Below are positions 468-42,848 of a DNA stretch of 55,003 nucleotides, piece after piece. Made by a program: the position numbers and the translations under genes. Source of the DNA: a virus (Duplodnaviria > Heunggongvirae > Uroviricota > Caudoviricetes). The stretch's first letter is position 1, and each line of letters opens with the position of its first letter. The stretch lies in the IMG/VR virus record IMGVR_UViG_2740892523_000006. One strand, written 5' to 3'. The notes under the pieces are model-generated. The model searched no databases, was not told where the DNA came from, and saw nothing but the letters and a program-made list of their open reading frames with translations.

Positions 468-797
468 CTATGCCACGACCTGTTCAAAATCTGCCGTTAT
501 GGTTACCCACAGCGCCCCCACGCTTGCCGACCATTTACGACAAACCACCCTGATCGGTTTCCAGTCATAAGGTGGCGTCCACTGAAATGCACGGACGCCA
601 CCGTGCCGTTCCAGAAAGGCTTTTAAAGATGGGTGTTCACATTTACGAACACGTATCGTCACGCTGTAAGTCGACAACTGGTTATTCAGTCCCGCCGCAC
701 GACGCTGTTCATAACCATCGCCCAGCTTCACTGTCACCACTTTCGGCTCTGATACCACATTCATATCCGGGCGCACTTTCCAGTGAAACGTCTCCAT
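468..797 (-). CDS. M: Lambdoid minor tail protein M
   Basis: 109 aa, METFHWKV...AFQWTPPYDWKPI...ADFEQVV closely resembles recalled lambda gpM (109 aa); position between H and L. Confidence 0.85.
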   Translation of the reverse strand: METFHWKVRPDMNVVSEPKVVTVKLGDGYEQRRAAGLNNQLSTYSVTIRVRKCEHPSLKAFLERHGGVRAFQWTPPYDWKPIRVVCRKWSASVGALWVTITADFEQVVA

Positions 798-2161
798 TAC
801 CGATATGCTCCACTTAACCGACCACCATCACGGGCCTGCTGTTGCATAAAGTCCGCTGCCGCTTTTTTCCCGAGGTCATAAACCGCCTTCAGGGCAGCCG
901 GACCTATCTGCCCGTTCGTGCCATCGTTATTGATCTCGATGTTGTACTGCGGGGAAAACATCGCCATACCTGAACCCCCAATATCCGCCACAACCCCCAG
1001 CTTACCGTCAGCACCACGACGCAATGGCAGAATGGCTTCAGGTCCCGCTTCCCCCATCACACCCGCGCCTTTTGCAAAAGCAAAAAACGTCGGACGGTTA
1101 ACCACCGTGCCACTGTAACGACTCAAATCAGCAGACTGATAAATCCCCCCATTGGCATTCAGGGAAAGGCTGCTGAGATCAAATCCCAGTACACTGCCAA
1201 TCCCTTTTATCGATTTCATCATGGTTGCCTGCGCCAGGATTTTCGCCATATCTGACAGCACAGAAGAGGTGAAGGATTTGAAATTGAGTTTGCCGGTAGT
1301 GACAAAAGTTGCCAGGCCATTTCCCATGTTGCTGAAGGCTGACGAGAACACCTGTTCTGCTGTTTCTGCCGTATTATCTGCATCCACGGTAAAATCCTGA
1401 AATGCACGCAGGACTCCGTTTTTCCAGTTACCCTGTACAACTTCAAGCTGTTGCCAGTAACGGCGATTCTCATTCAGTTGTCGGTTCAGGCTCTCCGTCA
1501 GCGCCTGCTCGGCCTTTCTGTAGTCATCCGTGTTATATGTCCCTTTCTGCTCACTATCCCGCCTCAACTGCTCCAGCTGTTGCTGGTATTTCTGGCGAAG
1601 ACTCAGTTGTACCTGATATCGCTGTCGCTGCTGATCACCCATACCCACCGTGGCGATATCCAGGTCATGTTGCTGACGCTGAGCGCGCTCTTCTTCAGCC
1701 AGTTGACTGGTCAGCTGAATTGTTTTTTTCTTCAGCTCGTTGAGTGCCGTCTGTTTCTGAAGCTCCTGCTGTTTTACATCCAGCAGCGTCAGTGCCTGAA
1801 TCAGTTCATCTTTACGGGCCAGCACACTCTTTTCATCTGCCGTCAGTTTTTTCCCGTCCAGGTCGCTGATGCGCTGCTGCAGAGCCAGAAGCTGTTTACG
1901 CGCTTCTGTCATCCTTTCCGTGGCAATGCCTGCTGACTGTCTGGCAGCAGCAATCTGTCCTTCCACCTGTGCCTGTTGCTGACTGTACTGCAGCAATAAC
2001 CGGGTGGCCTCATCATTACGGGTTTCGCGTGTTTTTTTCTTACCGGATGCCAGGGCTTTCTCGTAACGTTCATTTTCACGTTGTATCGCCGCATCCCTGA
2101 CAGCCTGATCGGCGTACTGCATGGCATTAATACGCGCTATTTCACGCTGATTATAGCGCGG
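797..2161 (-). pseudogene. H: Lambdoid tail tape measure protein H, C-terminal fragment (gene interrupted by Mu-like prophage)
   Basis: ORF 797-2287; C-terminus INNDGTNGQIGPAALKAVYD matches recalled lambda gpH C-terminus; its first ~45 codons read through the Mu-like right-end repeats. Confidence 0.75.
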
Positions 2162-2240
2162 CGATTTTTTTGATACCGATTTGCATTTCATTTGATACCG
2201 CTGAAAAACGCCGATACGCAACTTATTTGATACTAAATCG
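2162..2240. repeat. Mu-like right-end terminal repeats (putative transposase binding sites)
   Basis: TTTGATACCG at 2169-2178 and 2191-2200, related TTTGATACTA at ~2226; closely spaced as for Mu R1-R3. Confidence 0.55.
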
Positions 2241-2279
2241 GCGCTTTTCTTTTGAGTTTTAGAATGAGTTTTTAAGCGC

Positions 2280-3017
2280 TCATTCACTCTCTTTCAAACC
2301 AGTTTTAACTGTTTGTGGTTTTGGGTAAGGCTGGACTTTGAATAGCTTTGTGTTGAGGCGTTTTCTGGCCCTCTTGTTCAGAAACCGGATGTAACGAAAC
2401 TGTCGGAACTTATGAACACTGGCTCTGTCAATATTAGCCCTCAGATGTTCACCTCGTTGTCCGCCTCGTTTAATGGCATTCCTGCAAATCTCGTGATACC
2501 ACTCGCCATCAAGTTCATAGAATATTGATTCATGGCTGCCTACATAATCAAAATTGCTTGCCTGATACACGACACCAAGACAGCCACAACGCTCATCTGC
2601 AAACGACTGAACCCACTGTACCTGCGGATAAAGCTGCCTGATTAGCTTGAGCGCGTAACTGATTGCCCTTGATTCGGAGTTTCTCGGCATACAGTCATGC
2701 AGCCATAGCCGGTTAAGCTCCATATATTCTCGGTTCTGCGTACCCGTTACGACGCGTGCACCACTGTTTGGGTTAAGGGCGTAACCCCATTGCATTACGC
2801 CAACAAGTTCCCGTTCTGAAAATATGCCCAGATGAAGGTAGGAGTTATTTACGAAACGGTGGCTGTAATGTTTATTGACGATGACCAGTCTGGCCAGCCA
2901 GCAACTTATTGTCTCAACCCGCAACTCACGGGAGCCATAACCAACGATATTGTCGTTATAGCGAATAAGTTCAGGCGTGCTGATGATTCGGGATGTGACT
3001 TGCTTTCTGTTCCCCAC
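2280..3017 (-). CDS. mom: Mom-like DNA modification protein
   Basis: 245-aa ORF immediately downstream of and overlapping a Com-like zinc-finger gene, ~120 bp from prophage right end, as in Mu; sequence identity to Mom not verified. Confidence 0.6.
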
Positions 3018-3216
3018 GACAGGATTTCCTTGTGTATGTGGGGTGCTCTGTGGCGCTCGGAGATGTGATTTGATTGAGGGTTTTACAGCGCGGACATTTT
3101 ACTTCCAGATAACTGAAACTGGCCCGTGCCAGTAGCTTATTGCAGTGTCGGCACCGTATGTTTCGATACATGACCGCATAACCTCCTGCTTTGTTGTTGA
3201 TGCCTTTCTCATGCAA
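2971..3216 (-). CDS. com: Com-like zinc-finger translational regulator of mom
   Basis: [10 protein letters not shown]...EVKCPRCKT...EHPT matches recalled Mu Com CxxC...CxxC pattern; TTG start at 3216 or ATG at 3171; overlaps mom start. Confidence 0.7.
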
Positions 3217-3218
3217 TC

Positions 3219-3235
3219 GATCGACAAAAACGATC
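3219..3235. promoter_or_regulatory. Paired GATC (Dam) sites upstream of com/mom
   Basis: GATC at 3219-3222 and 3232-3235 just upstream of com start; Mu mom promoter is controlled by Dam methylation of clustered GATC sites. Confidence 0.4.
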
Positions 3236-3582
3236 GATTCGATTTGTTTAATTGATACAACAAATAGATTGAAAAGTCATCAACAATGATTCAGGGAGGT
3301 GATTATTTACTTAAAGAAAACGAAGAGTTAGGTGGTGAAAACGATCATAAAATGATCATTTTATTGACTTTTTATACAGTGAAGGTAGGATCACGCGTAT
3401 ATGTAGTATGTTTCAAATCAACAGGATACTACATAAAAGTGAAACCCAGCATAGCTGGAACTATGCTGGGTCAATCTGTAAAAACTTGCATCAATGCTTT
3501 ACTTCGAGCTCGTGGCGTATCCTATGATATTCCCCGGTCTCCTGTAAAGCAGAGATGCATAAAAAGGAGATCTTTATCATGG

Positions 3583-3750
3583 ATGAAAGAGCCTGTTTGC
3601 CCTGCCTGTAAGACTCCCTTACAGCTCATCTATCGCCGTTCTCGATCTCAAAATGGCAAGACATACAAACCCAAAAATGCTTCCTGTTTCAGGATGCTGA
3701 TATGTCCTGCCTGTTCTCCCAGGAGGGAAAATACACAAAACGTGCATTAA
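3583..3750 (+). CDS. Possible small zinc-ribbon protein (CPxC...CPxC)
   Basis: AAGGAG at 3564-3569 ~13 nt before ATG 3583; MKEPVCPACKT...ICPACSP; lies inside a longer 154-aa ORF of doubtful coding quality. Confidence 0.25.
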   Translation: MKEPVCPACKTPLQLIYRRSRSQNGKTYKPKNASCFRMLICPACSPRRENTQNVH

Positions 3751-3788
3751 CAAACTCACCCGGCAGGGAAACCTGCCGGTCGGTATTG

Positions 3789-4034
3789 TTACATCATAGT
3801 ACCGTCAGTTCCGGGCTGAACCGGCTCTGGTTGCTCTACGGGTTGAGGATCATTTTCCGTGCTGTTTTCAGCCGGAGAACGGCCAACCATTCGGGCCAGC
3901 ACTTCATCAACATATGCGTCGATTTGTGCCTCAAAATCCTTGCGAACCTGCGCCTTCAGCACGCGGTTCACTTCTTCAGAATAAAGTGCCTGTTTGACAA
4001 GCTCTTCAGTAACCGTGCCTTTAATCTCTGGCAT
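3789..4034 (-). CDS. Hypothetical protein (81 aa), downstream of esterase gene
   Basis: ORF in same orientation as esterase; acidic Pro-rich C-terminus; no family recognised. Confidence 0.4.
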   Translation of the reverse strand: MPEIKGTVTEELVKQALYSEEVNRVLKAQVRKDFEAQIDAYVDEVLARMVGRSPAENSTENDPQPVEQPEPVQPGTDGTMM

Positions 4035-4069
4035 GAATATTCTCCTTTTGCAGGTATATTGCCCCGTTA

Positions 4070-4252
4070 TCAGAGCGGGGTCGGGTCGTTTGGGGATGAC
4101 GGTGCCTGTGCTGTTTTACTGAGTTTTTCAGCTGCCGCATCATCAATTTTACGGCGAATATAATTTCTGATGACCTTATAACCACCGCTCACCAGATATA
4201 ACGCACTGACCACAGCGCAGAAATAAAGCAGCATTGTATGAACGAATGTCAT
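4070..4252 (-). CDS. Hypothetical small membrane protein (60 aa)
   Basis: N-terminal hydrophobic stretch LLYFCAVVSALYLVSGG then charged tail; same strand as esterase. Confidence 0.4.
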   Translation of the reverse strand: MTFVHTMLLYFCAVVSALYLVSGGYKVIRNYIRRKIDDAAAEKLSKTAQAPSSPNDPTPL

Positions 4253-4364
4253 ATAACCTTACCTTTGATATTGACTACATAATTCGTTATCGGGTAAAAA
4301 CATCGAAGCGACTGATAACCACTCCTTCGGGAGTATTTTTATTTTCCTTTATGGGTTAGGTAGC

Positions 4365-4400
4365 TCCCGCCAGCCATATCATGACCGGCGGGATTTTTTT
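4365..4400 (+). terminator. Candidate intrinsic terminator facing plus strand, abutting esterase stop
   Basis: CCCGCC...GGCGGG stem followed by ATTTTTTTATT on plus strand (4366-4403). Confidence 0.35.
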
Positions 4401-6438
4401 ATTCTGTTACCGCTTTTTTCACTTCCACCACAATGCTGTCAATCAGCACCGGGTAAGTTGCATTTTTTGTGATATCCGTTACGCGGAGTTTGTCCACCGG
4501 GAAAGTTCCTACTGGTGACTGCGTCAGGGTAAACGCGGCACCATCCTGACCATCAATAACCGGAATAACCTGAAGGCTGTTATTTCCTGCAAAACGGAAG
4601 GCCAGCGTATGCCATTCATTATCAAATGCACCAAAGGTTCCCAGTTTCTGGTTATTTGTTGCCACTTTTGCATTGTGGTACATCACATTCAGGTCTTTTG
4701 CGTCTGTCTGGATGTAGAACGATGCCAGCAGATTATTCCCTGCATCCCCTGTCAGGGTGACACCCTGCGGCAGAGAGGAAACCGGCCAGTAAAGCCCCAT
4801 GACATACTGGTTTGCCACCAGGTCGCCAGGTACTTTAAAACGACAACTGATTAAACCACCATTTTTCAGCAGTTCAGCACCAGTACCGGCATCATGATCC
4901 AGATACCAAGATGATTTACCTGTTTCCTTGGTCAGTTTCATTGCCTTACCACCTGTGCCTCCTGCATCACTGATAATTTCAGCTTTACCGCCAGCCGGCT
5001 CCCAGCCCTGGGCTTTCAGATTTCCTTCTGACTCACTGACACGATAAGACAGCAGTGTTGTGGTTACTGCTTCAGTTTCTGAAGGTGACGGCACTGGTGC
5101 TTCAGTTTCAGAAGATGGAACATCGGCTTTTACTGTGGTTCGCCCCGCATGAGTCAGAACTGCCGTGGCCAGACGGTCGGAAATAATCCCACGACGTGCC
5201 CATGAACTGAAATGGCTGGCCCGGTCCGCAGATGTCCAGGTGGCGGCACTGTTACGCCACGTTGAGCCGTAATAACCAATGGATTCAATATCCGGGTCTT
5301 CTGCCGGATTGTTGGTGGGTACATTCGCGTCATTTTCATCTGTCATTAATGGAACGAAATGAATGTTTTTATCTGTTTTGTTTTTGTAGCCGCCATAGAT
5401 TGCCTGGTATGCCGGTTCATTTTTCTGTTTCCAGAAATACGTGGTATCGCCACAAATCCACGGAACGCCAGCAGCACTGCCACCGGTACACTGTTCCGCC
5501 TGTTCAGCCAGGTCTGCGCGGAATTTTTCCACCATCGCCAGAAACAGCGCGGAATGCTCCGTCGGCTTCGCATCAATATCAAACTCGCCCTGCATCCACA
5601 CCACAGCAAGCAGGCGGTTTTTCGGGTTCTTCGCCAGTGCCGCTTTTGTCCGGCTGATTAAGTCCTTATACAGCGGCTTATCCACACCCCAGCGGGCTGA
5701 GTCCTCTGAAGCACCCGTGCTGTCACTGTACGTGCCGTCAGCACCCGCCGTGAATGCAGAACCACCACGGCAGCAGGGAACCAGCAGAATCCCCGCATCT
5801 GCCGGAATAAACGGCAGCAGTTTTTTGGCAATGTGAAGCCCCTGACCCACGGTGCCATATTGCCCTTTAGCCACATCCGCTTTCGGGTGATTTTTTCCAC
5901 TCATATCCTGCACATCATGCAGACAGTGGTCGGCCAGAATGATGTCGTTATACTGACAGGCTTTACCTCCCGGCGTGACTGTACTGCGACGGGCTAACTG
6001 CATAATACGCGGTTCGGGGCGGTCATATGTCTCCGGCAGTGGCAGACCTTCACCGTAAGCCATACCGTTTGACTGACCAGCAAGAACCACCACGTAATAC
6101 CAGGAAGGGGAGCTGGAAGCAGTTTCATTTCCTGACGGACGGGTATGTGTTTCAGCATTATCCCAGTCTGACGGTTCAGCAGTACCGGCAACATCAGCAC
6201 TTAACGGAATGACCGCACCAATACCCGCTCCGGTAATTTCCACACTCGGATCACCGGATACTGGCCTTACCCACAGGCAATCCCGTGTATTAAAACTGAT
6301 GAGACAGTCAGCAAATGTCATTCCTCCTTTTGTTTCGGCCGGAGGAAAGGGAGCCTCAAGAAATGCCGCTGTACCACCGGAAACTTTAACAGTAAAGTTT
6401 CCGGGCATTGATGATAGTTGAACCCATTTGGACGTCAT
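4399..6438 (-). CDS. SASA/SGNH-family carbohydrate O-acetylesterase with C-terminal lectin-like domain (NanS-p-like cargo gene)
   Basis: 679 aa; VVVLAGQSNGMAYGEG matches the GQSN esterase motif; SETEAPVPSPSETEAV linker; beta-rich C-terminal ~230 aa; no signal peptide. Confidence 0.65.
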   Translation of the reverse strand: MTSKWVQLSSMPGNFTVKVSGGTAAFLEAPFPPAETKGGMTFADCLISFNTRDCLWVRPVSGDPSVEITGAGIGAVIPLSADVAGTAEPSDWDNAETHTRPSGNETASSSPSWYYVVVLAGQSNGMAYGEGLPLPETYDRPEPRIMQLARRSTVTPGGKACQYNDIILADHCLHDVQDMSGKNHPKADVAKGQYGTVGQGLHIAKKLLPFIPADAGILLVPCCRGGSAFTAGADGTYSDSTGASEDSARWGVDKPLYKDLISRTKAALAKNPKNRLLAVVWMQGEFDIDAKPTEHSALFLAMVEKFRADLAEQAEQCTGGSAAGVPWICGDTTYFWKQKNEPAYQAIYGGYKNKTDKNIHFVPLMTDENDANVPTNNPAEDPDIESIGYYGSTWRNSAATWTSADRASHFSSWARRGIISDRLATAVLTHAGRTTVKADVPSSETEAPVPSPSETEAVTTTLLSYRVSESEGNLKAQGWEPAGGKAEIISDAGGTGGKAMKLTKETGKSSWYLDHDAGTGAELLKNGGLISCRFKVPGDLVANQYVMGLYWPVSSLPQGVTLTGDAGNNLLASFYIQTDAKDLNVMYHNAKVATNNQKLGTFGAFDNEWHTLAFRFAGNNSLQVIPVIDGQDGAAFTLTQSPVGTFPVDKLRVTDITKNATYPVLIDSIVVEVKKAVTE

Positions 6439-6537
6439 AATAATCAGCCTGTTCCTGAATAAACTGAATTATCATATCCACAGACCGATAAACGCCATTT
6501 TGCGTTAATTCAGTAAAGGCCCAACAAAGGGAGCGTC

Positions 6538-7098
6538 TTATTTTTCCGAAACGCTCGCAGGATAATAACGATAAAGGGTTGAAAGGCCGATATCAAAAAT
6601 AAGTGCCACCTGTCTTCGACTGACACCCCCGGCCAGTAAACGCCCGACCTGCTCGTATTGTTCCTGCGTGAGACGACGGGGTCTGCCGCCGGTTCGTCCC
6701 CTTTCACGGGCAGCTGCAAGACCAGCCCGTGTCCGTTCGACAATTAATTCACGCTCCATTTCTGCCAGCGCACCCATTATGTGAAAAAAGAAGCGCCCCA
6801 TGGGGGTTGACGTATCAATGTTGTCAGTAAGACTACGAAAATTTATCCCCTGTTGCTGTAATTCATCTGTCAGCGCAACAAGGTGGCGCATACTGCGCCC
6901 CAGCCTGTCCAGTTTCCAGACCATCAGTGTGTCACCGGGTTTTAGTTTCTTCAGTGCCCGCTTCAGTCCCGGCCGCTGTGTCGTTTTACCACTCATTTTA
7001 TCTTCAAAAATCTGCTCACATCCTGCACATTCCAGCGCATTTCTTTGTAAACCTGTGTTCTGGTCATTTGTTGATACGCGTATATAGCCAATCAGCAT
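6538..7098 (-). CDS. gin: Gin/Pin-family serine DNA invertase
   Basis: 186 aa, MLIGYIRVSTNDQNTGLQ...GINFRSLTDNIDTST...C-terminal HTH; resolvase/invertase N-terminal serine signature; adjacent to invertible segment. Confidence 0.9.
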   Translation of the reverse strand: MLIGYIRVSTNDQNTGLQRNALECAGCEQIFEDKMSGKTTQRPGLKRALKKLKPGDTLMVWKLDRLGRSMRHLVALTDELQQQGINFRSLTDNIDTSTPMGRFFFHIMGALAEMERELIVERTRAGLAAARERGRTGGRPRRLTQEQYEQVGRLLAGGVSRRQVALIFDIGLSTLYRYYPASVSEK

Positions 7099-7154
7099 GT
7101 ATTTACCTTCCTTAAAAAGAGGTGGAAAGGCCTTTTAAAGCAGATATACGGCAT

Positions 7155-7185
7155 CCCTGAAACCTCGGTTTACGGGATACTGTAA
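7155..7185. repeat. gix-like inversion crossover site (gin-proximal)
   Basis: AACCTCGGTTTACGGGATAC at 7161-7180 is an inverted copy (18/20) of 8526-8545 and resembles recalled Mu gix core AAACCTCGGTTTAC. Confidence 0.7.
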
Positions 7186-7523
7186 ACAGGGCCGCGAATG
7201 CCCTGCCATCGAACGGAGCGGCTGTTGCAGCGAATAAACTCGCCACTCCAAGAAATATTAATGGTGTCCCATTTGACGGAACGCAGGATATAAATATTAC
7301 ATCGGGGATGACGCAGTCTGTGGCTGACTCACGTTATGTTCAAAGCATTCGAAGAGGTTCAAGGTCAACGATTGGAATGCAATATAATATTTTTGAGGTT
7401 CCTGACGGATGCGTACTTACAGGGCTTGATGTCGCTGGTGATGGTAATGCAACGGTAACCGCATATTATCGACCTGTTCAGTTTCTGATAGATGGTTCGT
7501 GGAAAACAGCTTCCAGCGCATAA
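7161..7523 (+). other. Silent alternative tail-fibre C-terminal cassette (Sv-prime), no own start codon
   Basis: Frame open from 7161; translation NLGLRDTVNRAANALPSNGAAVAANKLATPRNINGVPFDGT... parallels S residues 194-321; would be fused to S constant part after inversion. Confidence 0.65.
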
Positions 7524-7602
7524 AAGTGCAGTAGTTCAAAAAACAGATTATCTGAATAAATATATGATGATTTTGTCTTTTCAACAAAAACAAGGTGAAA
7601 TA

Positions 7603-8124
7603 ATGGAGCTTATTAACGTAAAACGATATTACCCGGAACACAAACCCTATGGTGAGGATGTTCAGTATTTCCAGAGTGAGGACGGAAGGGATTTTTATGA
7701 ATCTATCCCGCTTTTCACAAAGAAATACAAACTCTGTATTTCGCCTGTAACGGGTATTATCTGCTCTGTTGCTGAAGATGTCTCTGCTTTATATCCGGCA
7801 GGTTTTACTGTTGTTGAAGTGGACGAACTGCCGGAAGGTGTGAATATTGACGGTAACTGGCAGTTTTCTGATGGCCTGATATCAAAGGTGCCGGTAAACT
7901 GGAAGACGGTTGCTGAAAAGCGCCGCTCATCGCTGCTCCAGGAAGCCAACGAAACTGTGGATGACTGGAAAACGGAATTAAAACTGGACATGATTAGCGA
8001 TGAAAATAAATTACAGCTGACGCGCTGGATGGCGTATATCCGACAGCTTAAAGAAATGCACTTTAATGATATTGCCAGTGAGGGGCATTACCAGGCGATT
8101 CCCTGGCCGGAAAAACCGGAATAA
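7603..8124 (+). CDS. Tail fibre assembly protein (U-prime-like), inside invertible segment
   Basis: Starts MELINVKRYYPEHKP after AAGGTG; C-terminus QLTRWMAYIRQL...AIPWPEKPE typical of tail fibre assembly chaperones. Confidence 0.7.
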   Translation: MELINVKRYYPEHKPYGEDVQYFQSEDGRDFYESIPLFTKKYKLCISPVTGIICSVAEDVSALYPAGFTVVEVDELPEGVNIDGNWQFSDGLISKVPVNWKTVAEKRRSSLLQEANETVDDWKTELKLDMISDENKLQLTRWMAYIRQLKEMHFNDIASEGHYQAIPWPEKPE

Positions 8125-8158
8125 TTCAGAGGGTGCATTCAGCACCCTTTTCTGTGGT

Positions 8159-9070
8159 TTACACTGAACTTACCGTTCTCCAGGCATTATTAATATAAAT
8201 CTGAACCGGGCGATAATAGACCCCACCGATATTGTCCGCAGACCGGGAGCCGGTTTCCTGCACGTTAATTCCGGAAAGCATACAACCGGAAGGTGCGCTG
8301 TAATTCCATGACATTTCATTGCCTCCGGGTGAATGATAGCTCTGTGCTCCAAGCTGAACATTCTGTACATACCGGCCATCTGCGGTTGACTGCGTCATTC
8401 CTGACGTGATGTTGATATCCAGCGTTCCGTCAAAAGGAACACCATTAATATTTCTTGGGGTGGCGAGTCTGTTTGCTGCCACGGCGGTTCCACCCGATGG
8501 CAGGGCATCAGCAGCCTTATTTACCGTTTCCCGTAAACCGACGTTATCGATAAAAGCGCCTTTATCCGGAATGTCTGCGCCGTTCTGCTCCCTGCGCAGG
8601 TAACGGTTATCACCTTCGCTTTTGCTGTAAACATCCAGATTATTACGGGCGGTTCCCGCATTCTCCAGGTCGGCAAGGTTCTGATCCTTCGCCAGAGCAT
8701 TAACGTCACCGGGACCAAGACTGTTTTTTGTGGCAAGCGCCCCAAGACCAAGATAACCACGGGCAAGACGCTGGGCTTCCGCACCGGCATCAGCAATTTC
8801 TTTCAGGTTGTTTTTCCGGGAAAAGGCATTCGCAGCGATAATGGCTTTAATGGACAGCGTAAGCTGGTTTAACTGCGCCTTATCCGGCTGAATACTGGCT
8901 TCAGCCAGAATATTCAGCAGTTCGGCCTGGAGAATATTCAGCCAGTCCTGACCAATCCAGCTGATACCTTTTTGTCCGTCACCTTCGGTAAACCAGGTGG
9001 TGGTATTACTCTGCGCCGGTGCCAGCGCAGGCATATTCGCCACGCCGGAATTATTATCAACATGGAACAT
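8159..9070 (-). CDS. Tail fibre protein (Mu S-like; constant N-part plus invertible C-terminal part Sv)
   Basis: ATG at 9070 overlaps upstream stop (TAATG); C-terminal 127 aa lie within invertible segment and are homologous to Sv-prime cassette. Confidence 0.75.
   Translation of the reverse strand: MFHVDNNSGVANMPALAPAQSNTTTWFTEGDGQKGISWIGQDWLNILQAELLNILAEASIQPDKAQLNQLTLSIKAIIAANAFSRKNNLKEIADAGAEAQRLARGYLGLGALATKNSLGPGDVNALAKDQNLADLENAGTARNNLDVYSKSEGDNRYLRREQNGADIPDKGAFIDNVGLRETVNKAADALPSGGTAVAANRLATPRNINGVPFDGTLDINITSGMTQSTADGRYVQNVQLGAQSYHSPGGNEMSWNYSAPSGCMLSGINVQETGSRSADNIGGVYYRPVQIYINNAWRTVSSV
8522..8550. repeat. gix-like inversion crossover site inside tail fibre gene
   Basis: GTTTCCCGTAAACCGACGTT at 8526-8545, inverted repeat of 7161-7180; coincides with codons ~193-200 (DNVGLRET) where the two cassettes begin to align. 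Confidence 0.7.
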
Positions 9071-28394: not shown

Positions 28395-28396
28395 CG

Positions 28397-29200: not shown

Positions 29201-29210
29201 ACCTTTTTCC

Positions 29211-30873: not shown

Positions 30874-30942
30874 ATCAGCCTCCGGTTCTCGCGTTCCCGG
30901 TAAGTTTAAAATAAAAATCCCGCGTTGTGGCGGGATTTGGGG

Positions 30943-32299: not shown

Positions 32300-32481
32300 T
32301 TATGTTTTCCAGTAATACGGATATATATGTCGATAAGAAGATTCATAATAAACAGGAAGAGCGACATCCTGATAAAGAACCAAATATCTGGCATCATGGA
32401 CAGGTTTCCTGTAATCGCAAATATAAAACCAACCCCCAACACCGGAACGAAAATTGCGAAAAATACAAGTCTCTTTATCAT
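32296..32481 (-). CDS. Hypothetical small two-TM membrane protein (low-GC islet)
   Basis: 61 aa, two hydrophobic helices. Confidence 0.4.
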   Translation of the reverse strand: MIKRLVFFAIFVPVLGVGFIFAITGNLSMMPDIWFFIRMSLFLFIMNLLIDIYIRITGKHK

Positions 32482-33029: not shown

Positions 33030-33032
33030 ACA

Positions 33033-34081: not shown

Positions 34082-34084
34082 GAA

Positions 34085-34627
34085 TTATTCCTCCGTCAGC
34101 GCCACATATTCAGAATGTTTAATCTCCTGGCATTCTTCAGGAATACCCCCTTTTATTTCCCTGCCATAAGCGCCTACTTTAAACACCACGCACAGGGCAT
34201 CACGGGAGAGCGACGGGGTCCACCAGGAGTCCATGTTAAACATGGAGGGGATTCTCATTACCCCCAGCTTTTCACAGAGCCAGACAAGGAAATCAGGACG
34301 CTTTCTTAACTCGCGTTCAGCGGCTTCAATCATTGCGGCAATCGCCGGTCCTTCAGGGCATGACTCATCAGGTCTGGCAATAAAGCACGGTCCGTCCCCG
34401 ACAAAAGCCACATCATCGCGCTTACGCCAGCCCGCAGGCAGAGCACCAGAAAAATAAAACTCACTGATTACGTCCATGGCAAACGGCTTTAAGCGCAATC
34501 CGGCAGCGCCTGTATTTTTCAGTAATGCCCGAAGAATACTGTTGCGTAGCGGTAAAACAGTCTGTTGATATTTGGTGAAATATTTATTTGTCTGCACACG
34601 GTCTAATTTGAAATAAAAATATGCCAT
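34085..34627 (-). CDS. Hypothetical early protein
   Basis: 180 aa; synteny only. Confidence 0.45.
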   Translation of the reverse strand: MAYFYFKLDRVQTNKYFTKYQQTVLPLRNSILRALLKNTGAAGLRLKPFAMDVISEFYFSGALPAGWRKRDDVAFVGDGPCFIARPDESCPEGPAIAAMIEAAERELRKRPDFLVWLCEKLGVMRIPSMFNMDSWWTPSLSRDALCVVFKVGAYGREIKGGIPEECQEIKHSEYVALTEE

Positions 34628-34724
34628 ATATCCTGTTCCTTATTTTCAGTTTACAGGCGCAGGCAGTCCCCTGACGCGAGCGCCATAATTAAAACGAAGT
34701 GATATTTAATTGATTAATGCGGTG

Positions 34725-35255
34725 TTATTTATTCAGTCCAGCGTCCTGTTCAAAAGGCTCGACATAAAAACTTTCAGCGCCTTTATTCACCTTAATACCG
34801 GCAATCCCTTTCACCGCATCCGGCTCCGCCAGGACCGCTTCCTTGTTCACTTCCTCTTTCGTGCGGATAAAACGCTCAAGGCCCATACGGCGCAGCATTT
34901 CAATCACACCTTCCACATCACGACTGACGCTGCATGATGGATTCCCCAGTCGCCATGACACCGTTCCGGTGGTCAGATTGGCAGTTTTGGTTTTGCCGCC
35001 GTTCGTCAGCTCATCTCGGTTGGTTTTGCACCAGTCCTGAATCCCCTTAAAAAGCACTTTGATTTCTTTTTTAAGGTTTTCAATCTGCGGCGTATAACGG
35101 GCGGTGATTTCTGCCACTTCATCATTCATCGCCGTTTCCAGCCGCAGCGCCTCTCGCTGAATATCGCCCAGGGTGCGGATATCGCGGCTGACCTCTTCAC
35201 GGGTCTGCGGTGCCGCCTCTGCTGCGGCCTTTAATTTTGTAACGCGTTTTGCCAT
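34725..35255 (-). CDS. gam: Host-nuclease inhibitor Gam (Mu Gam-like)
   Basis: 176 aa; RLETAMNDEVAEIT...WCKTNRDELTNGGKTKTANLTTGTVSWR...FIRTKEEVNKEA matches recalled Mu Gam. Confidence 0.85.
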   Translation of the reverse strand: MAKRVTKLKAAAEAAPQTREEVSRDIRTLGDIQREALRLETAMNDEVAEITARYTPQIENLKKEIKVLFKGIQDWCKTNRDELTNGGKTKTANLTTGTVSWRLGNPSCSVSRDVEGVIEMLRRMGLERFIRTKEEVNKEAVLAEPDAVKGIAGIKVNKGAESFYVEPFEQDAGLNK

Positions 35256-35266
35256 TTTGTTTTTCC

Positions 35267-35560
35267 TTATTGCAGTGTGCCTGATGCTTTATGCACGCGG
35301 TGGCGTTTAATGATGGCATCCGCCCCAAAAGCCTGTACAGATGCCTGAAATTCCGCTGAGAGAAACTGAATAATTTCAGGACTGTGATACTGGAGAATAC
35401 TTGCATAAACGTCACAGAGTGACGTCGGCCTGTTATTCGTATCACGTTCTGTTTTTACATCCACACCAATCTTTTCATGCACTTCAACACAGTCATTGCC
35501 TGCCGGTTTTTCGTCATGCGAAACATGCTTAAATTCAAAAATAACGCGTACTTTGCTCAT
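35267..35560 (-). CDS. Hypothetical small protein, paralog of 35565-35837
   Basis: Starts MSKVRVIFEFKHV; neighbour starts MSKVVRIIFEYKEHV. Confidence 0.45.
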   Translation of the reverse strand: MSKVRVIFEFKHVSHDEKPAGNDCVEVHEKIGVDVKTERDTNNRPTSLCDVYASILQYHSPEIIQFLSAEFQASVQAFGADAIIKRHRVHKASGTLQ

Positions 35561-35564
35561 GGAA

Positions 35565-35837
35565 TTACCCCTGCTGATTAAATTCATTACCTTTAATAAC
35601 CCCGGAACGCATGCTCATATCTTTCATGAGCGCACTGGCTTTCATTGCCACAAGTTCAGCAAAGTCTCTGCTTTCCGCGAGCATAACCACCCCAAAAATC
35701 ATGGCGGGTCCATCACCCTTCTGCTTTATCCCGGTTGAACGTATGTCCAGACTTACCCCCATGCGCACTGTTCCATCAGCGTTTTTATGGATAACGTGCT
35801 CCTTGTATTCGAAAATAATGCGTACGACTTTACTCAT
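35565..35837 (-). CDS. Hypothetical small protein, paralog of 35267-35560
   Basis: 90 aa; shared N-terminal motif with downstream gene. Confidence 0.45.
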   Translation of the reverse strand: MSKVVRIIFEYKEHVIHKNADGTVRMGVSLDIRSTGIKQKGDGPAMIFGVVMLAESRDFAELVAMKASALMKDMSMRSGVIKGNEFNQQG

Positions 35838-36115
35838 CCTCTGGTCCTCGTTCTGTTTGGATAACTGACCCGGCGTCTGACCTCACGGCAGAACCGAATC
35901 ATGGCATTAAAGGCTTCTTCCTCCGTCACCGCTTCCGGTATCCCCGGAACCAGTAACTGCTCCTGTTCATCACGTCCATGACGCGCCATAACCTCAATCA
36001 CATGCCGTACCGTGGCAGGCTTTCCGGCAACTATCGGCAATGCACCTTCCGGCAGGACGTAACCAAACTCAATAAGACCACTCGACCACGCCCATGCAAT
36101 GAGATTTTTTTTCAC
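35834..36115 (-). CDS. Hypothetical early protein
   Basis: 93 aa; synteny. Confidence 0.4.
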   Translation of the reverse strand: MKKNLIAWAWSSGLIEFGYVLPEGALPIVAGKPATVRHVIEVMARHGRDEQEQLLVPGIPEAVTEEEAFNAMIRFCREVRRRVSYPNRTRTRG

Positions 36116-36116
36116 C

Positions 36117-36383
36117 TCACACCTCCCAGTAAACCGTGCAGCCGCTGATGCGGGTGGCCTTCACACGGCGGCGCAGGCCGTTGGTCTGTATGGTGATTTC
36201 AATTTCACCGGTTCCCTGCACGTTGCCTACCGGCGGCGTGGTTTTCAGTGCAAAACGTTGCGGATAGCGCTTACTGCGTTCCAGTACCGCACCGGCAAGT
36301 TCGGTCAGACGGCGCGCGCTGTTCAGGGAGTCGAATAAATTCATTTTGTTACCGCAGGATTGCATATTCATATAACACCTCAT
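36117..36383 (-). CDS. Hypothetical early protein (kil region)
   Basis: 88 aa; synteny. Confidence 0.4.
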   Translation of the reverse strand: MRCYMNMQSCGNKMNLFDSLNSARRLTELAGAVLERSKRYPQRFALKTTPPVGNVQGTGEIEITIQTNGLRRRVKATRISGCTVYWEV

Positions 36384-36611
36384 TTAGCTGACTTGTTTCG
36401 CACCAACAGAACGGCATATTCCGCTGTAAACGTCTGTCGCACCTTCTCGATCAAGTCCGGCAGATATCACCATTCGTGTGCGGTCATTAAATTCAAAAAG
36501 TAAATCGCCACATTCTTTATTTTCGGCCAGTGAAATCACCTTCACGTTATCGAAATTAACCAGGTAAAAGCGTCCGTAAATATCAGGAATATTAAATACC
36601 GCCATAATCAC
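36384..36611 (-). CDS. Hypothetical early protein (kil region)
   Basis: 75 aa directly after B. Confidence 0.4.
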   Translation of the reverse strand: MIMAVFNIPDIYGRFYLVNFDNVKVISLAENKECGDLLFEFNDRTRMVISAGLDREGATDVYSGICRSVGAKQVS

Positions 36612-37540
36612 ACCTGTGAGAGTAATTCAGGGTTGGTATAAACCTCTTTAAAGGCCGCATTAATATGTTTTTCTGTCAGCGCCGCGCCTTCACCGCTGGC
36701 GGTGAGCCACGCCTGGTTAAGCGTATGTGTCAGAACGCGTAACGCTCCCGGCTTTTCAGCGATAGCCTGCATGACGGCCAGCTCGGCCTCACCACTGATC
36801 CCCCACGCCCTGGCAATGGCCAGCACATCCGCCTTTTTGGCCTTGCGAAGTTGTTTTGTACGGGCAAGACGGCTGAACAGGCGCGATAAATCATCAAAGG
36901 TGCGGCGTCCACCTTTAAACAATCCGCGCGGGTTACCAATAAGCACCATCCCGATCCCCGTGGCGTCCTGAATTGCCCGGAGTTGCTCCAGACCGTCAAT
37001 ACCAAGATGATCCGCCTCATCCACAATAACCAGTCCACGCGTTCCCATCAGGCGACGGCGGATGGCGCGGGATAATGCCCCTTTGTTCGCGCGGGTGTAA
37101 TCAATCCCCAGCGCATCGGCCAGCTCCAGCAGACACTCCGTGACGCTGGAGTGCGCGGGTGACAGGGTGATCATCCAGGTGTTTGGTTGCTCCTGGCAGT
37201 AATTACGGGCAGTGGCCGTTTTACCCACACCCGGTACGCCCACAATAACGTTAATACAGCCCATCAGACGAACCGCCTGAAACAGTGCGCGCAGCTCCTG
37301 GACTGTCTGCGTTTCCACAAACTGCGGCGGTTCCGGCAGTGCGCTTTGTTTATTCCAGTTCTCATACCAGGAACGCAGGGAAGCAGCCACAGCAGCGTTA
37401 TCGCCTTTATATTTTCCCTTACGGAAAGCCGATAATGTGCCGTCGGAAATTCCCGCCTCTCTGGCGATGGCATACTGCGTCAGTACGCCGCCATCAATAA
37501 GTTCATCAATGGTCTTGATTACATCGTTAATATCAGTCAT
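36608..37540 (-). CDS. B: Transposition ATPase B (MuB-like AAA+)
   Basis: 310 aa; Walker A GVPGVGKT, DEADHLG, KKADVLAIARAWGISGE closely parallel recalled MuB. Confidence 0.9.
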   Translation of the reverse strand: MTDINDVIKTIDELIDGGVLTQYAIAREAGISDGTLSAFRKGKYKGDNAAVAASLRSWYENWNKQSALPEPPQFVETQTVQELRALFQAVRLMGCINVIVGVPGVGKTATARNYCQEQPNTWMITLSPAHSSVTECLLELADALGIDYTRANKGALSRAIRRRLMGTRGLVIVDEADHLGIDGLEQLRAIQDATGIGMVLIGNPRGLFKGGRRTFDDLSRLFSRLARTKQLRKAKKADVLAIARAWGISGEAELAVMQAIAEKPGALRVLTHTLNQAWLTASGEGAALTEKHINAAFKEVYTNPELLSQV

Positions 37541-37611
37541 ATTATTAACCTCTCATTTGATACCTTGTTTAATCAAATAACCTGAGTCGCCGCTCGGGTT
37601 ATTTTTTTATT

Positions 37612-39702
37612 TCAGGCCAGCGGGTCATTTTCTTTTAATTTCGCTTCCAGCAACTGCAATCCCCGCTGGAAATTACGCTCGTATTCTTCATCAGGTTCAT
37701 CGTCAGCGACCGGTTGCTGAACGGTCACCGTATTACCCACAGGGCGGTATATGTTTTCCAGCCAGGGCTCCTGCGGCTTGTGCTCCAGCACGTTGACAAC
37801 CTCATCCTCGGCATCACGGATTTTTTCCTCTGCGCGTTTACGCATGCCTTTAAGGCGTTGCTGCTGTTTGTAGTATTCCGCGCTAACCGGGAAGGCTTCG
37901 CGTTTATTACCGTCCCATACCGCCTCGCAAATCACGCTGCCATCCAGGCGACGTACGGTAATTCGTTCGGCATCATGAATGTCATAGCTGATAAGCACCT
38001 TACGACCATGCTCGTCACGCAGCTCGGGCGCGTAGTAAATATTATTCAGCCAGCGTATTTCACAGCGTCTTACAGGGCGTTCCACCATCGGCCGGAACAT
38101 ATCCCGCAGCTCAACATCGGACAGCCATTCAATTTCCGTGTCCTCTTCCGCCAGGCGTTTTTTTCTGAACTCCGCCGGGCTGTAATGCTTGCCGTTCGGC
38201 TTCACCGGTAATTCATCGTGCGGCCGGTTGTTGTACCACTCAACACCGTCACGAATGGCATCAATCAGTTCAGACCAGGACGGTAAATCACGCATCGCTG
38301 ACTGCTGCCGGGCGTTCAGCCGTTTGCCCTGTTGCAGGGCAGTAAATGCCGAGCGTAAATCGCGGTTGGTTTTGCGTAACGTCTCGCGATCTGCACCTTT
38401 CCCGAAATAGGTGCGGTATTTACGGGCTATGCGCATCGGTAATGTGCGGTTAAGCCGTTCGATAATGCCTCGTCCCTGCGGATTACCGGCAATCCCGGTC
38501 GGGTGATTAATCCCCAGTCGCGGCAGTATCCCCACAACCTCCTTATCCAGGATGTCGGCGGTTTCCCCGGAGCCGTTATCCGAGTAATACAGAAACGGTT
38601 TGCCGTGATGGCGAATGCCGTGCTGTATGGCACCGGCTACGGCGAAAACATTTTCAGCCAGGTCAAGGCTCCAGCCCACCACAAAGCGCGTGCCACCGTC
38701 GATAACAAAGGTCACTTCCGGTGCAAATGGCCGACCGTGAACCGGGTGTGCGCATTTCAGCTTCATGCCGTGACCGTCACCAATCCAGACATAATTCACC
38801 GGCATTCTGGACCAGTCGCGGCGCGTGAATCCCTCAAGCTGGCGGTATTCACTGCCGGTCACCCGGCCTTTTTGTTTCACCACTTCCGGCAGTTTCTTCA
38901 TTGCGCGGCGAATGGTGTCATAAGACGGCATGATATCGAGCATATAAGGCTCATCAGCGTGCCGGTGCTGCCATTCAGCGACAAAATCCTCGTAAGCCTC
39001 GGTCATTGGTCGGCCGTTTGACTGGCGATACTGCGCCAGAAATTCGGGCAGCCAGTTAATATCTTCGGCTTTTATTTCCTGGCGCTTACCCGGTGCCAGT
39101 AAAAGCAGGCGTTCAGCGGCGTTCTGCGCCTTGTTAAAGGCCGCAATCCAGCGTTTCAGCGTTATTTCACTCAACGCACGGCTGTTTCCCTTTTTGGCGT
39201 TCGCCGTCTCAACCATTGCCACAATGCGCTCGTCCAGTTGCGAACGTGCCAGGTTGTCAACGATAAACCGGATAGCTTTCGCACAGCTGAAACCGGGTTG
39301 TTGCGCGACTTTCATCACTTCGCTGACGATCGCGATTCGTGCATCAGCCACCTGGCGCTGGTTTTCAGTCAGGGCATTAAGGCGTTCAACCATCAGTTGT
39401 GGTGATCCGCGATATGCCTCCACCGCATCAACCACGGCAGGCGAGCGTCTGGCCTTTGTCACCACCGGAGCCGGTGATTCATCAGCTTTTTGCGTCATCA
39501 GTTGAAGGGCATAACGTTCACGCAATACTTGTTGCGCGCCAGAAGGCAAACAATCGATATTAAATTCGATTGCTTTTGTCCCCTTACGTTTGCGTAACAT
39601 GGCTGCATTTCCCGCAGCTGCTTTTGTGAGTCGATGGCGAATGTTATGTTCCATCATTGGTAAATCAGGAAGACCAACACATTCTTTTGCTGTTACCCAC
39701 AT
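37612..39702 (-). CDS. A: DDE transposase A (MuA-like)
   Basis: 696 aa; N-terminus MWVTAKECVGLPDLP...KGTKAIEFN resembles MuA; followed by B. Confidence 0.9.
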   Translation of the reverse strand: MWVTAKECVGLPDLPMMEHNIRHRLTKAAAGNAAMLRKRKGTKAIEFNIDCLPSGAQQVLRERYALQLMTQKADESPAPVVTKARRSPAVVDAVEAYRGSPQLMVERLNALTENQRQVADARIAIVSEVMKVAQQPGFSCAKAIRFIVDNLARSQLDERIVAMVETANAKKGNSRALSEITLKRWIAAFNKAQNAAERLLLLAPGKRQEIKAEDINWLPEFLAQYRQSNGRPMTEAYEDFVAEWQHRHADEPYMLDIMPSYDTIRRAMKKLPEVVKQKGRVTGSEYRQLEGFTRRDWSRMPVNYVWIGDGHGMKLKCAHPVHGRPFAPEVTFVIDGGTRFVVGWSLDLAENVFAVAGAIQHGIRHHGKPFLYYSDNGSGETADILDKEVVGILPRLGINHPTGIAGNPQGRGIIERLNRTLPMRIARKYRTYFGKGADRETLRKTNRDLRSAFTALQQGKRLNARQQSAMRDLPSWSELIDAIRDGVEWYNNRPHDELPVKPNGKHYSPAEFRKKRLAEEDTEIEWLSDVELRDMFRPMVERPVRRCEIRWLNNIYYAPELRDEHGRKVLISYDIHDAERITVRRLDGSVICEAVWDGNKREAFPVSAEYYKQQQRLKGMRKRAEEKIRDAEDEVVNVLEHKPQEPWLENIYRPVGNTVTVQQPVADDEPDEEYERNFQRGLQLLEAKLKENDPLA

Positions 39703-39712
39703 ACATCCCCCA

Positions 39713-39979
39713 TCAAGCCACTTCTCTGGCGTCCACCTGGTATCTGCTGGGCCAGATTACAGCAGGTTCAACCCCTATTTTTTCGGCGATGGCGGCTTCG
39801 TATTTACGGCACTGGCGGTAAAACACATTGCGCATTGATCCGCTTTTTAATCCTAACTCCCTTTCCAGTTCAGGGAGGTCTGTGCCTTTGTTTTCAAGGG
39901 CTGCATATACCGCTTTAGCAGACCAGTCACACCCCTCTCGAACAAACAAATTATTCGATGCTTGTCTGGATACCCTCAT
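39713..39979 (-). CDS. ner: Ner-like DNA-binding regulator
   Basis: 88 aa; C-terminal VIWPSRYQ shared with recalled Mu Ner; divergent from repressor gene. Confidence 0.8.
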   Translation of the reverse strand: MRVSRQASNNLFVREGCDWSAKAVYAALENKGTDLPELERELGLKSGSMRNVFYRQCRKYEAAIAEKIGVEPAVIWPSRYQVDAREVA

Positions 39980-40135
39980 TGTGTGATCCTCTCATGTTTA
40001 CCTGAACCGATAATCAAAACCGGTTATCGATTTAGGTAAATCATAATCGCAAAATAATTCGATATCAACGGTTTTTTGCGAGCACATCGAAATTAAATGC
40101 GATGTTGATAATTTCTTTGTTTTATAGGGGGTTAT
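39980..40135. promoter_or_regulatory. Divergent early promoter/operator region between ner and repressor
   Basis: AT-rich; palindrome CGATAATCAAAACCGGTTATCG and further TCGATA/ATCGAA motifs. Confidence 0.5.
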
Positions 40136-40747
40136 ATGGATAAGGCAGAAAAAACCGTATCCAGTGCGGAACGGTTTATTGATATGGAAGGAATAAACCG
40201 ATTTTCAGAACGCTTAGCTATGGCTATGGGAAACATGACAAACGTCGAACTGGCGACCCTTTGTGGACTATCTGAAGCCACAGTAAGAAATTACAGGAAG
40301 GGGAAAAACTTCCCTCCTTTGGATAAACTGGCCTTAATAGCTAAAGCCTGTAATTGTTCACTCGAATGGTTGGCCACAGGCAAGAACGAAGATGAATGCG
40401 GAAAAATCGAAAACAATTGCGATTCAGGTTCGGGTATTGATCAGGCGCTTAGCTCTCTAAGCCCCCAAGAGAAGCAATTAATCCTTACATTCATCAGGCG
40501 AGAAGGTACTAACAACCTTGTCAGGCTGGCAGCAATGAATACATCTACAATCAGCCAGGATGCGGTAGAAAGCATCATTGATGCCTTGCCATTACGTCCC
40601 GTACTAAAAAATGCAATAAAGATAGGAATGGCGGGAAGTGAAGAAACAGACAAAGAGATTTTGCGCGTTATTGAGAAGTACAACTCGAGCAATAACGCCA
40701 CCCAGGAATCAGGGGCAGTGACAGTAAAGAAAAATGTTGTTGGTTAA
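40136..40747 (+). CDS. Prophage repressor (HTH XRE-type), in Mu c position
   Basis: 203 aa; HTH NVELATLCGLSEATVRNYRKGKNFP; divergent from ner-A-B operon. Confidence 0.75.
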   Translation: MDKAEKTVSSAERFIDMEGINRFSERLAMAMGNMTNVELATLCGLSEATVRNYRKGKNFPPLDKLALIAKACNCSLEWLATGKNEDECGKIENNCDSGSGIDQALSSLSPQEKQLILTFIRREGTNNLVRLAAMNTSTISQDAVESIIDALPLRPVLKNAIKIGMAGSEETDKEILRVIEKYNSSNNATQESGAVTVKKNVVG

Positions 40748-40919
40748 GCGCCATCGCTATCATGAGGTGGTGCTGTAAATACATATAGAGATCATATGAC
40801 TCATCCCAAGATAATCACGCTATTGAATAGTAATTCATGATGATTATCATACTGATTATAGTTAGATCGATTATGTGAGCATTTTGGCAGTTTGAAGATG
40901 TTTTGAAGAAGATTTTAAG

Positions 40920-41093
40920 GGTAAATTAGCAGTATCAAATGTGTCGCCGTTTTTTGATCTTTTGACTATTTGTTGAGCAGTCGGTATCAAAAAGAGTTTT
41001 CCGTCCGAAGTATACATCACCTGTTTTATTTCAGCATCTTACAGGTGATTTCACCTCCTTTCACTAAAACCCTTGTCGGTATCAAATGATTCA
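40920..41093. repeat. Mu-like left-end terminal repeats (putative transposase binding sites)
   Basis: On minus strand TGAATCATTTGATACCGAC at terminus (41093 downward), TTTTTGATACCGA ~100 bp in, ATTTGATACTG ~150 bp in; spaced like Mu L1-L3. Confidence 0.55.
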
Positions 41094-42848
41094 CCTGGTT
41101 ACATGATGTCGTGCTGCTTCCGTTTCATTCATCCGGTTCAGTGCAGCATTTTCAGCATTACGGCGTTTCTGTTGCTCCTGATAATTCCGCTCTGCCTGCT
41201 CTTTTGCATCCTGCAAATCCTTCTGGCGTTTTTTCTCCTGAAGATCGTTAAGACGCTGCTGATCGTATTCAACCTGAGAAGATGATGCCGTCCAGGGGAG
41301 TCTTTTCGCCCGCGACACTTTCTCCTGTAAAGCGGCAATCTGTTCATCCAGCGAGTCTTCACGACCAATATTCATGGCCGCATCCCAGAAACGACTCCAC
41401 AAATCAGACAGATACTTCAGCGTACTGCCAAGCGCATTGAGGTTATTATCAATATCCGCAGTACGCCGACCGGTTTCCTCTGCCAGTGCAGACATGGCTA
41501 TCCGTGCAGCATCACTGGACCGCCCCTGCTCCCCAAGGACGCGTATCTGCTCAAGCTGAGTGGCAGTAAGAAAATGCAGCTCATTGTCCAGAGCCTTCGC
41601 GGCATTTACAGGATCATCCTTCAGCCGCTTAAACTGATTTATGGTATCGCTGACCGACTGGCCAACCGATCGCTCCATCTGTGCGGCAGCTCTCGCCACC
41701 ATACCGATATCGTTTCCACGAAATGCACCACTCCCCACCACCTGAGCCAGCGCACCGGCTGCAGCATGTTGCGTGATACCATTCCCGGAAATAGCACGAC
41801 TGAGCGTCCACAGCTGCCCGGCAGTGACTCCGGCATAATGCCCCGTCAGCGACAGCTGGCGGTTAAATTCTTCCCCCTCCTTCTGACCGTCATACCAGGC
41901 TTTACCCAGACCATAGACAGCCGCGGCAATACCGCCAATAACCGCTCCTGGCATCATGCCTTTCGGTGACATCAGTGTGTCTATCCACCCGGCACGGTTA
42001 GCCAGCGTTATTCCGGATCCCCTCAGCGCACCTAAATTGCCGCGGGCCAGTTCACCTATCAGAACGCCTATCTCCTGACGGGCTGCTGCACTTTTCAGAC
42101 CCAGCGAATGCGTGGCTTTTCCTGCCTGCTCCATTTTGCGGATATACACTTCTGCAGCACTGCTTACCCCCAGCTGGGCAGCCTTAGCACGAAGCAACTC
42201 AGAAGAAGAAAGATTCTGGCGGGTTGCCTGCTCTTTAAGCTGACGGATAAACGCCACTTTCTGTCGGGTAGCCTCTTCCTCAGCCTGTGTAAGAACACGG
42301 GTTTTCGCCGTAACCTCAGAAATCAGCGCCAGATAATCCTGCTGACCAATCCCGCCACTGTTTCTGGCCTGTCGGATCTGTTGCTGAATACGCTGTAATT
42401 CCTGCAGCCCCGCACCGGCCTGTTTCACACTGTCAATCTGACGATAAAACGCAGCAGCCGCTTTATCCTGAGCCTCCGCCAGAGCCATGGCCTGCGCCTG
42501 TTCCTCGCGCATTTTCTGGCTCAGTGCCTCCATACGCTGGCGGGTTTGCTCCACCTCGCGGGCCATGCGTTCATGAGCCTGTGCGCTCTTCTCCACCGTC
42601 TGCGCATGGACGGATGCGGCTGTTGCAGCCGAAGAAGCCGCCTGCATTGTCTGCCGGGCGGCCTGAGTCTGACGCTCCATAAAACGCTGCATACGGGCAG
42701 AAGACCGTTCTGCATCGCTGGCTGCACCATTCAGAAGGTTTTTGATACGGGGAATTTCATTTTTAAACTCTGCCGCATCAATCCCCAAATCAATGACCAG
42801 GTTGGCTATCTGGTCCATAACGCACACCTCCGGAAATACCTTCCCCAA
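41091..42848 (-). pseudogene. H: Lambdoid tape measure protein H, N-terminal fragment, truncated at Mu-like insertion
   Basis: 585 aa; N-terminus MDQIANLVIDLGIDAAEFK resembles recalled lambda gpH start; stop codon TGA 41091-41093 coincides with first bases of Mu-like end. Confidence 0.75.

Follow-up and report, generated by a model that had tools for sequence, protein, structure and literature searches.

A Mu-like prophage of the Sp18 family inside the tape-measure gene of an Escherichia coli lambdoid prophage

Mu-like phages nested in other mobile elements have been described in Escherichia coli that produces Shiga toxin (STEC). In CC119 genomes six of ten Mu-like phages were located in mobile elements, several of them in Shiga toxin (Stx) phages (PMC10132054, Nakamura et al. 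2023), and the GenBank Stx phage records LC727881 and LC727895 annotate nested Mu-like phages. One such transposable prophage, Sp18 of the O157:H7 strain Sakai, was predicted to be intact, replicates and is packaged without circularising (PMC2669165), and its position varies between strains (PMC7430833). The lambdoid prophage Sp3 is without repressor and replication functions, its integrase and portal genes are disrupted, and it showed no excision, replication or packaging (PMC2669165). Mu-like and B3-like phages are described as having conserved TG-CA ends, apart from exceptions with TA-TA in Leptospira, and Mu duplicates 5 bp of its target, B3 6 bp (PMC8705779). Here we analyse the virus record IMGVR_UViG_2740892523_000006, a stretch of 55,003 nucleotides referred to as the window, in which a Mu-like prophage of the Sp18 family interrupts the tape-measure gene H of a lambdoid prophage that by its sequence is Sp3.

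The Mu-like element extends from 41103 to 2152 of the window, is 38,952 bp long and carries its genes on the minus strand. The complete Mu-like genome is flanked by the N-terminal and the C-terminal fragment of a single lambdoid tape-measure gene. The 5' part of H (nucleotides 1-1715 of the Sp3 gene) lies at 41104..42818 on the minus strand, as seen from the comparison with O157:H7 strain TR01 and from the Pfam domain TMP_2. The 3' part (nucleotides 1716-3066 plus a second copy of the tetranucleotide ATCA) lies at 797..2151 on the same strand by comparison with Sp3 and TR01. Removal of the phage and of one ATCA copy joined 42818..41104 to 2147..797, and the resulting gene of 3,066 nt (1,021 codons) was identical to the intact gene of TR01 at 3066 of 3066 positions and 100% identical to ECs_0837 of Sakai Sp3 over all bases compared. 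In TR01 the N-terminal flank aligned to 917439-919183 and the C-terminal flank to 919180-920534; the flanks are thus contiguous with an overlap of 4 bases, which located both junctions. A first-pass annotation of the window had proposed a Mu-like prophage nested in a lambdoid tape-measure gene, and the restored gene and the exact empty site bear this out. Among 5,426 complete E. coli genomes each H fragment was found in about 1,800 at a coverage of at least 80%, many matches being 100% identical, and the matches fell under the single annotation 'phage tail tape measure protein'. Judged from these alignments, the identity of the flanks to one intact gene is far beyond chance.

The target duplication comprises 4 bp, ATCA, and the junction reads ...CGAC ATCA-phage-ATCA GCGTG..., while the empty site reads CGACATCAGCGTG. 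From the comparison of junction and empty site, the left copy of ATCA was assigned to 41104..41107 and the right copy to 2148..2151, both on the minus strand. The left end of the phage, 5'-TGTAACCAGG, starts at 41103 and the right end, GCGCTATA-3', finishes at 2152. These ends were placed from independent copies at other sites in more than 200 complete E. coli genomes and from the known empty site. Most of the copy matches listed started at 41103, a few extended up to 10 bases into the flank by chance, and none stopped before the base equal to 2152. The two fragments had been recognised earlier as halves of one gene, but their limits at about 2161 and 41091 fell 9 and 12 bases inside the element, so the suspicion voiced at the time that the ends were off by a few bases was correct. 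The failure to find a clean 5-bp duplication was also correct as far as it went, since there is no 5-bp repeat; the clean 4-bp duplication was overlooked because the ends were displaced by 9-12 bases and because this lineage makes 4 bp instead of 5 bp.

Comparison of the termini with those of related Mu-like prophages yielded the same end sequences and a 4-bp duplication beside a constant terminal A in nine of nine independent insertions, i.e. this one and eight others. The duplicated bases were AGCT in NCCP 15739 (the same site in AR-0428), CGCA in 2014C-3011, ATCA in FDAARGOS_293, TGTA in TX 265-1, TTCT in OkiPb01685, TCTG in Balcarce_24.2, TAAA at Sakai Sp18 (in sorM) and CATC in the Stx2c phage LC727881. 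In the GenBank record of the latter the 4-bp repeats bear the annotation 'duplication due to insertion of Mu'. Because of these nine insertions and this annotation the 4-bp duplication is a property of the lineage and not a sign of damage. We found no paper that discusses the 4-bp duplication and the TA-3' terminus of this lineage. A duplication of 5 bp was considered but does not hold: most insertions have unlike bases at the fifth position on the two sides, and the invariant A is part of the phage terminus. Three of the nine targets carry G-N-GTGAAA directly after the duplication, and two of them have the 10-mer ATCAGCGTGA, which includes the duplication, in common. The shared G-N-GTGAAA could be a target preference or a coincidence.

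Both ends carry three TTTGATACCGA-type repeats, which we presume to be transposase-binding sites. At the left end (40929..41103) they are found on the minus strand at 41076-86, 40981-91 and 40929-39; at the right end (2152..2236) they are inverted, on the plus strand, at 2169-79, 2191-2201 and 2226-36. Thus the left end has three sites in its terminal 175 bp and the right end three, on the opposite strand, in its terminal 85 bp, and at each end 17 nt separate the terminus from its first repeat. The window as a whole contains 28 matches of this type, with 12.3 expected. The arrangement of three plus three inverted repeats resembles the L1-L3 and R1-R3 sites of Mu. The left terminus is TG. At the right terminus this copy and all the related ones examined have ...CTATA-3', which departs from the TG...CA-3' pattern.

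The insertion interrupts the tape-measure reading frame at codon 572 of 1,021. The true start of H is the ATG at 42818 and not the TTG at 42848. The product of the interrupted gene now consists of 571 native residues followed by HVTR and a stop at 41091-41093, inside the left end of the Mu-like phage. The 3' part at 797..2151 has no start codon of its own. An open reading frame (ORF) for a 496-aa chimera (797..2287, minus strand) starts with a GTG in the right end of the phage and runs in frame into the C-terminal H fragment; this GTG lies 7 bases upstream of the end of the mom stop codon, the mom coordinates ending at 2280. H has the features of a lambda-type gpH: TMP_2 (PF06791) on the N-terminal fragment, a length of about 1,000 aa, and a position after G/T and before M/L. 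The domains Phage_TAC_2 and Phage_tail_T were found upstream of it, and the Prokaryotic Genome Annotation Pipeline (PGAP) names the intact 1,021-aa gene and its neighbours. This annotation of the neighbours also agrees with the earlier assignment of T, G, V, U and Z to one side of the insertion and of M and L to the other.

Sequence identity and gene order identify the host prophage as Sp3 of E. coli O157:H7 (Sakai Sp3, 891124-929709). The H-M-L region of Sakai Sp3 matched the window at 2151 of 2151 and 973 of 973 bases, and the upstream flank matched strain TR01 at 2996 of 2997 bases. Comparison with TR01 placed the lambdoid M gene at 468-797 and the start of the L gene at 1-458, both on the minus strand. 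The remainder of the Sp3-type late region, with T, G, V, U, Z, head genes, split portal, terminase and lysis genes, occupies 42790..55003 on the same strand. The lambdoid portal is broken into ORFs of 374 aa (48424-49548) and about 111-120 aa (47967-48329), again on the minus strand. TR01 has the same break, in agreement with the published defective portal of Sp3.

Among the 5,426 complete E. coli genomes the phage family was detected in about 200-230 (left 25 kb and right 14 kb of the element, coverage of at least 80%), spread over many positions of the chromosome and in one case located on a plasmid. Ten different insertion sites of the family were seen: Sp3 H, the ycjN region, a glycine-zipper gene, a terB-family gene, the frvR region, an ABC transporter gene, a quinone reductase gene, a lambdoid gpJ, sorM and an Stx2c phage. 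The gpJ case was found in O157:H7 TX 265-1 (NZ_CP038290.1, 2751060-2790366), where the same family interrupts the tail-tip gene of another lambdoid prophage. Neither junction of the insertion in Sp3 H (Sp3 H::Mu) was present in any of the complete genomes. On the other hand, the exact 575-aa truncated H product occurs in four contigs, including the drafts GCA_001619145.1 and GCA_001619075.1, and in these drafts the genes that come next are those of the same repressor, Ner regulator and transposase. To judge from these assemblies, the insertion genuinely exists and several isolates have it. The element itself is a mosaic. Its right 14 kb are 100% identical to the copy of NCCP 15739, while the left 25 kb are at best 99.0% identical to any complete genome (NE 1092-2) and align in two to three pieces. 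This mosaicism indicates, at the level of sequence, recombination among members of the family.

We consider it very probable that an Sp18-family transposable phage integrated by transposase-mediated strand transfer into H of a resident Sp3. Both 3' ends of the phage would have been joined to target phosphates 4 bp apart in H, and gap repair would then have produced the ATCA duplication. The outcome is a simple insertion in which no target DNA was lost, because both flanks are collinear target DNA. It is known from Mu that non-replicative integration of infecting DNA gives a simple insertion, whereas intramolecular replicative transposition yields an inversion or a deletion with donor DNA on one side of each copy. 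Since a simple insertion is what non-replicative integration of infecting DNA is expected to leave, we infer that the phage arrived by infection. Coordinates, duplication, exact gene restoration, gene content and distribution are direct observations from which this sequence of events was reconstructed.

Three points count against this course of events. The functionality of this particular copy was judged from its sequence. Our view is that of a 55-kb window, and a second phage copy or a chromosomal rearrangement outside would escape it. Finally, the right end is TA-3' and not the canonical CA-3'; yet this end is common to all family members, hence it does not mark this copy in particular as defective.

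Instead of infection, the phage could have transposed within the cell from a Mu-like prophage resident elsewhere in the same chromosome. E. coli genomes hold up to 5 places that match the phage, and Sp18-type phages replicate by transposition (PMC2669165; PMC10132054). However, this route should have left an inversion or a deletion with a donor flank, whereas we observed collinear target DNA on both flanks plus a duplication; moreover, a cell in lytic replication normally dies. Intracellular transposition is therefore an unlikely origin, though the best of the alternatives. Still less probable is that a ready-made Sp3::Mu allele formed in another strain was taken over through recombination or transduction. 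The mosaicism of the Mu-like element does show recombination among family members, but the flanks are identical to those of the resident O157 Sp3, Sp3 is not mobile (PMC2669165) and the junction is in no complete genome. A misassembly of a Mu-like contig onto repeated lambdoid sequence was considered because near-identical lambdoid tail regions are numerous in O157 genomes, the C-terminal H fragment occurring in up to 7 places per genome; it is hardly credible, as both junctions lie at the exact phage termini, where one target position is duplicated over 4 bp as is typical of the lineage, and the same junction appears in independently assembled drafts. A deletion or rearrangement of the tape-measure gene alongside the insertion, which the first-pass annotation had contemplated solely on account of the unseen 5-bp repeat, has nothing in its favour and can be dismissed: once the element and one ATCA are taken out, the gene is regained without a single base change, which refutes a deletion at the target, and the 4-bp duplication is that of all nine insertions examined.

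As a consequence of the insertion 39 kb now separate the C-terminal 450 codons of H, together with M, L and the later tail genes, from the lambdoid late promoter. The statement that a random transposition inactivated the lambdoid tail is nevertheless too strong, because Sp3 was already defective and shows neither excision nor replication nor packaging (PMC2669165). For the same reason the insertion is probably near-neutral, at no cost to the cell.

The gene content identifies 2152..41103 (minus strand) as a complete Mu-like transposable prophage of the Sp18 family, as supported by the copy matches and the empty site. Unless stated otherwise the genes below are on the minus strand. At the left end a repressor and a Ner-type regulator are divergently transcribed. 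The repressor (c-like, 203 aa, plus strand, 40136..40747) has a CI-type helix-turn-helix (HTH) by Pfam (Phage_CI_repr/HTH_3), and an identical protein is encoded by the NE 1092-2 copy; the Ner-like regulator (39713..39979) matched HTH_35. They are followed by the transposase A of 696 aa (37612..39702) with Mu-transpos_C and a Mu DNA-binding domain (HTH_Tnp_Mu_1), and by the transposition ATPase B of 310 aa (36608..37540) with Phage-MuB_C and AAA_22, both by Pfam. The early and middle region (30448..35255) was assigned by Pfam and includes Gam (34725-35255), a Gp11-like protein (33548-34081), GemA/gp16 (30943-31452) and Mor (30448-30873). In a Pfam search of the early genes only Mu Gp11, GemA and a weak HTH were returned. 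PADLOC gave no defence-system match among the accessory and early genes.

The late region (8159..30376), assigned by Pfam and the PGAP names of identical or near-identical copies, comprises lysis genes, terminase (26149-27813), Mu-type portal (Portal_Mu, 24560-26158), protease, major head protein of the Mu gpT type (20402-21349), sheath (17248-18750), tube, the tape measure of the Mu-like phage itself (14181-16256), baseplate and tail fibre. It is followed, within 6538..8545, by an invertible segment for the tail fibre, enclosed by inverted repeats of 182 nt (7161-7342 and 8364-8545), by a plus-strand gene for tail-fibre assembly (7492-8124) and by a Gin-like serine invertase identified by Pfam (6538-7098). 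Neither ARAGORN nor Rfam, the latter at gathering score, detected a tRNA or an RNA family, respectively, anywhere in the window. In the NE 1092-2 copy (NZ_CP038328.1) PGAP annotates a 'tRNA-OTHER' at 18161-18240 between the genes for head morphogenesis and virion morphogenesis; in the corresponding interval of the window (about 23124-23244) nothing was found by ARAGORN or Rfam.

The accessory right arm (2280..6438) was annotated from PGAP names and Pfam. It encodes a 679-aa protein with a SASA (sialate O-acetylesterase) domain and DUF6645 (4399-6438), a DUF1378 gene (4070-4252), a DUF826 gene (3789-4034), an ORF of 154 aa on the plus strand (3286-3750), Com (2971-3171; PGAP name in near-identical copies) and Mom (2280-3017; Pfam). 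The SASA/DUF1378/DUF826 block presumably resembles the nanS-p block downstream of stx in lambdoid phages. Such a nanS-p-like block probably explains why a genome can match the right arm at as many as 13 places, with 60-80% identity. Between mom and the right end a simple scan detected no terminator-like site on the minus strand, and the plus-strand matches were within expectation.

The Mu-type late genes and the genome length of 38,952 bp fit a Mu-like phage of about 36-39 kb. A comparison limited to ORFs on the phage strand showed that all of them are equal in length to those of three related copies, mostly at 100% identity. The earlier description of a complete-looking genome of about 39 kb therefore stands, and from its sequence, in which no disruption was seen, the prophage looks intact and fully functional with its repressor kept. 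At the repressor position at least four different proteins (203, 176, 194 and about 168 aa) were observed among otherwise near-identical copies. This variety suggests several immunity types, which would permit multiple copies per genome, in line with the up to 5 places noted above.

Sp3 H::Mu provides a clean, base-exact case of one prophage disrupting another in the crowded prophage pool of O157, and it illustrates that grounded prophages can serve as landing pads for active elements. The junction is a lineage marker, being in a few draft assemblies and absent from the complete genomes. Duplications of 4 bp rather than 5 bp matter for the automatic delimiting of such prophages. The case reveals no new kind of system. 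A wider reading, which we regard as doubtful, is that the Sp18 lineage forms a mechanistically distinct branch of transposable phages with a divergent transposase, a 4-bp stagger and a TA-3' end, and that a true target preference accounts for finding it so often in prophages and other mobile elements. As an alternative to a target preference, insertions may survive better in dispensable DNA.

Compared with phage Mu, the element has the same modules: divergent repressor and Ner, A and B, Gam, GemA, Mor, Mu-type portal and head, contractile tail, a Gin-invertible fibre segment, Com/Mom, three repeats per end and a left end starting with TGTA. It differs by the 4-bp duplication (5 bp in Mu), by its right end TA-3' (CA-3' in Mu) and by the extra esterase/DUF1378/DUF826 block between gin and com/mom. 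Among the matches listed there was no DNA similarity to Mu at the megablast level. In direct pairwise comparisons transposase A was 23% identical to MuA (E 1e-13) and ATPase B 49% identical to MuB, i.e. the divergence from Mu is very unequal. A sequence search of solved structures with the transposase gave only weak matches to retroviral integrase cores (E about 1e-4) and did not retrieve MuA; it took the pairwise comparison to bring out the distant kinship with MuA.

Among isolated phages the closest transposase (78% identity) was that of the Yersinia phages vB_YpM_5 and vB_YpM_6, but at the DNA level they resemble only about 6% of the left 25 kb. Sakai Sp18 and the Mu-like prophages of STEC, e.g. 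Phi804-3, have the same gene order, termini and 4-bp duplication, a DNA identity of about 95-100% and proteins such as WP_010917876.1 in common with the element. Sp18 measures 38,754 bp between the same termini, compared with 38,952 bp here, and resides at a different site. The immunity region also differs, with the 203-aa CI-type repressor here as opposed to 176 aa in the NCCP 15739 copy and 194 aa in others. Because Mu-like phages in mobile elements and Stx phages of STEC have been published, the nested insertion is a new instance of an already documented kind. The nearest precedents are LC727881 and LC727895 (PMC10132054), in which the same phage family is nested in lambdoid prophages and, for LC727881, the 4-bp duplication was annotated by the depositors; the present case differs from them in that the host prophage is, by sequence, Sp3 and the target its tape-measure gene.

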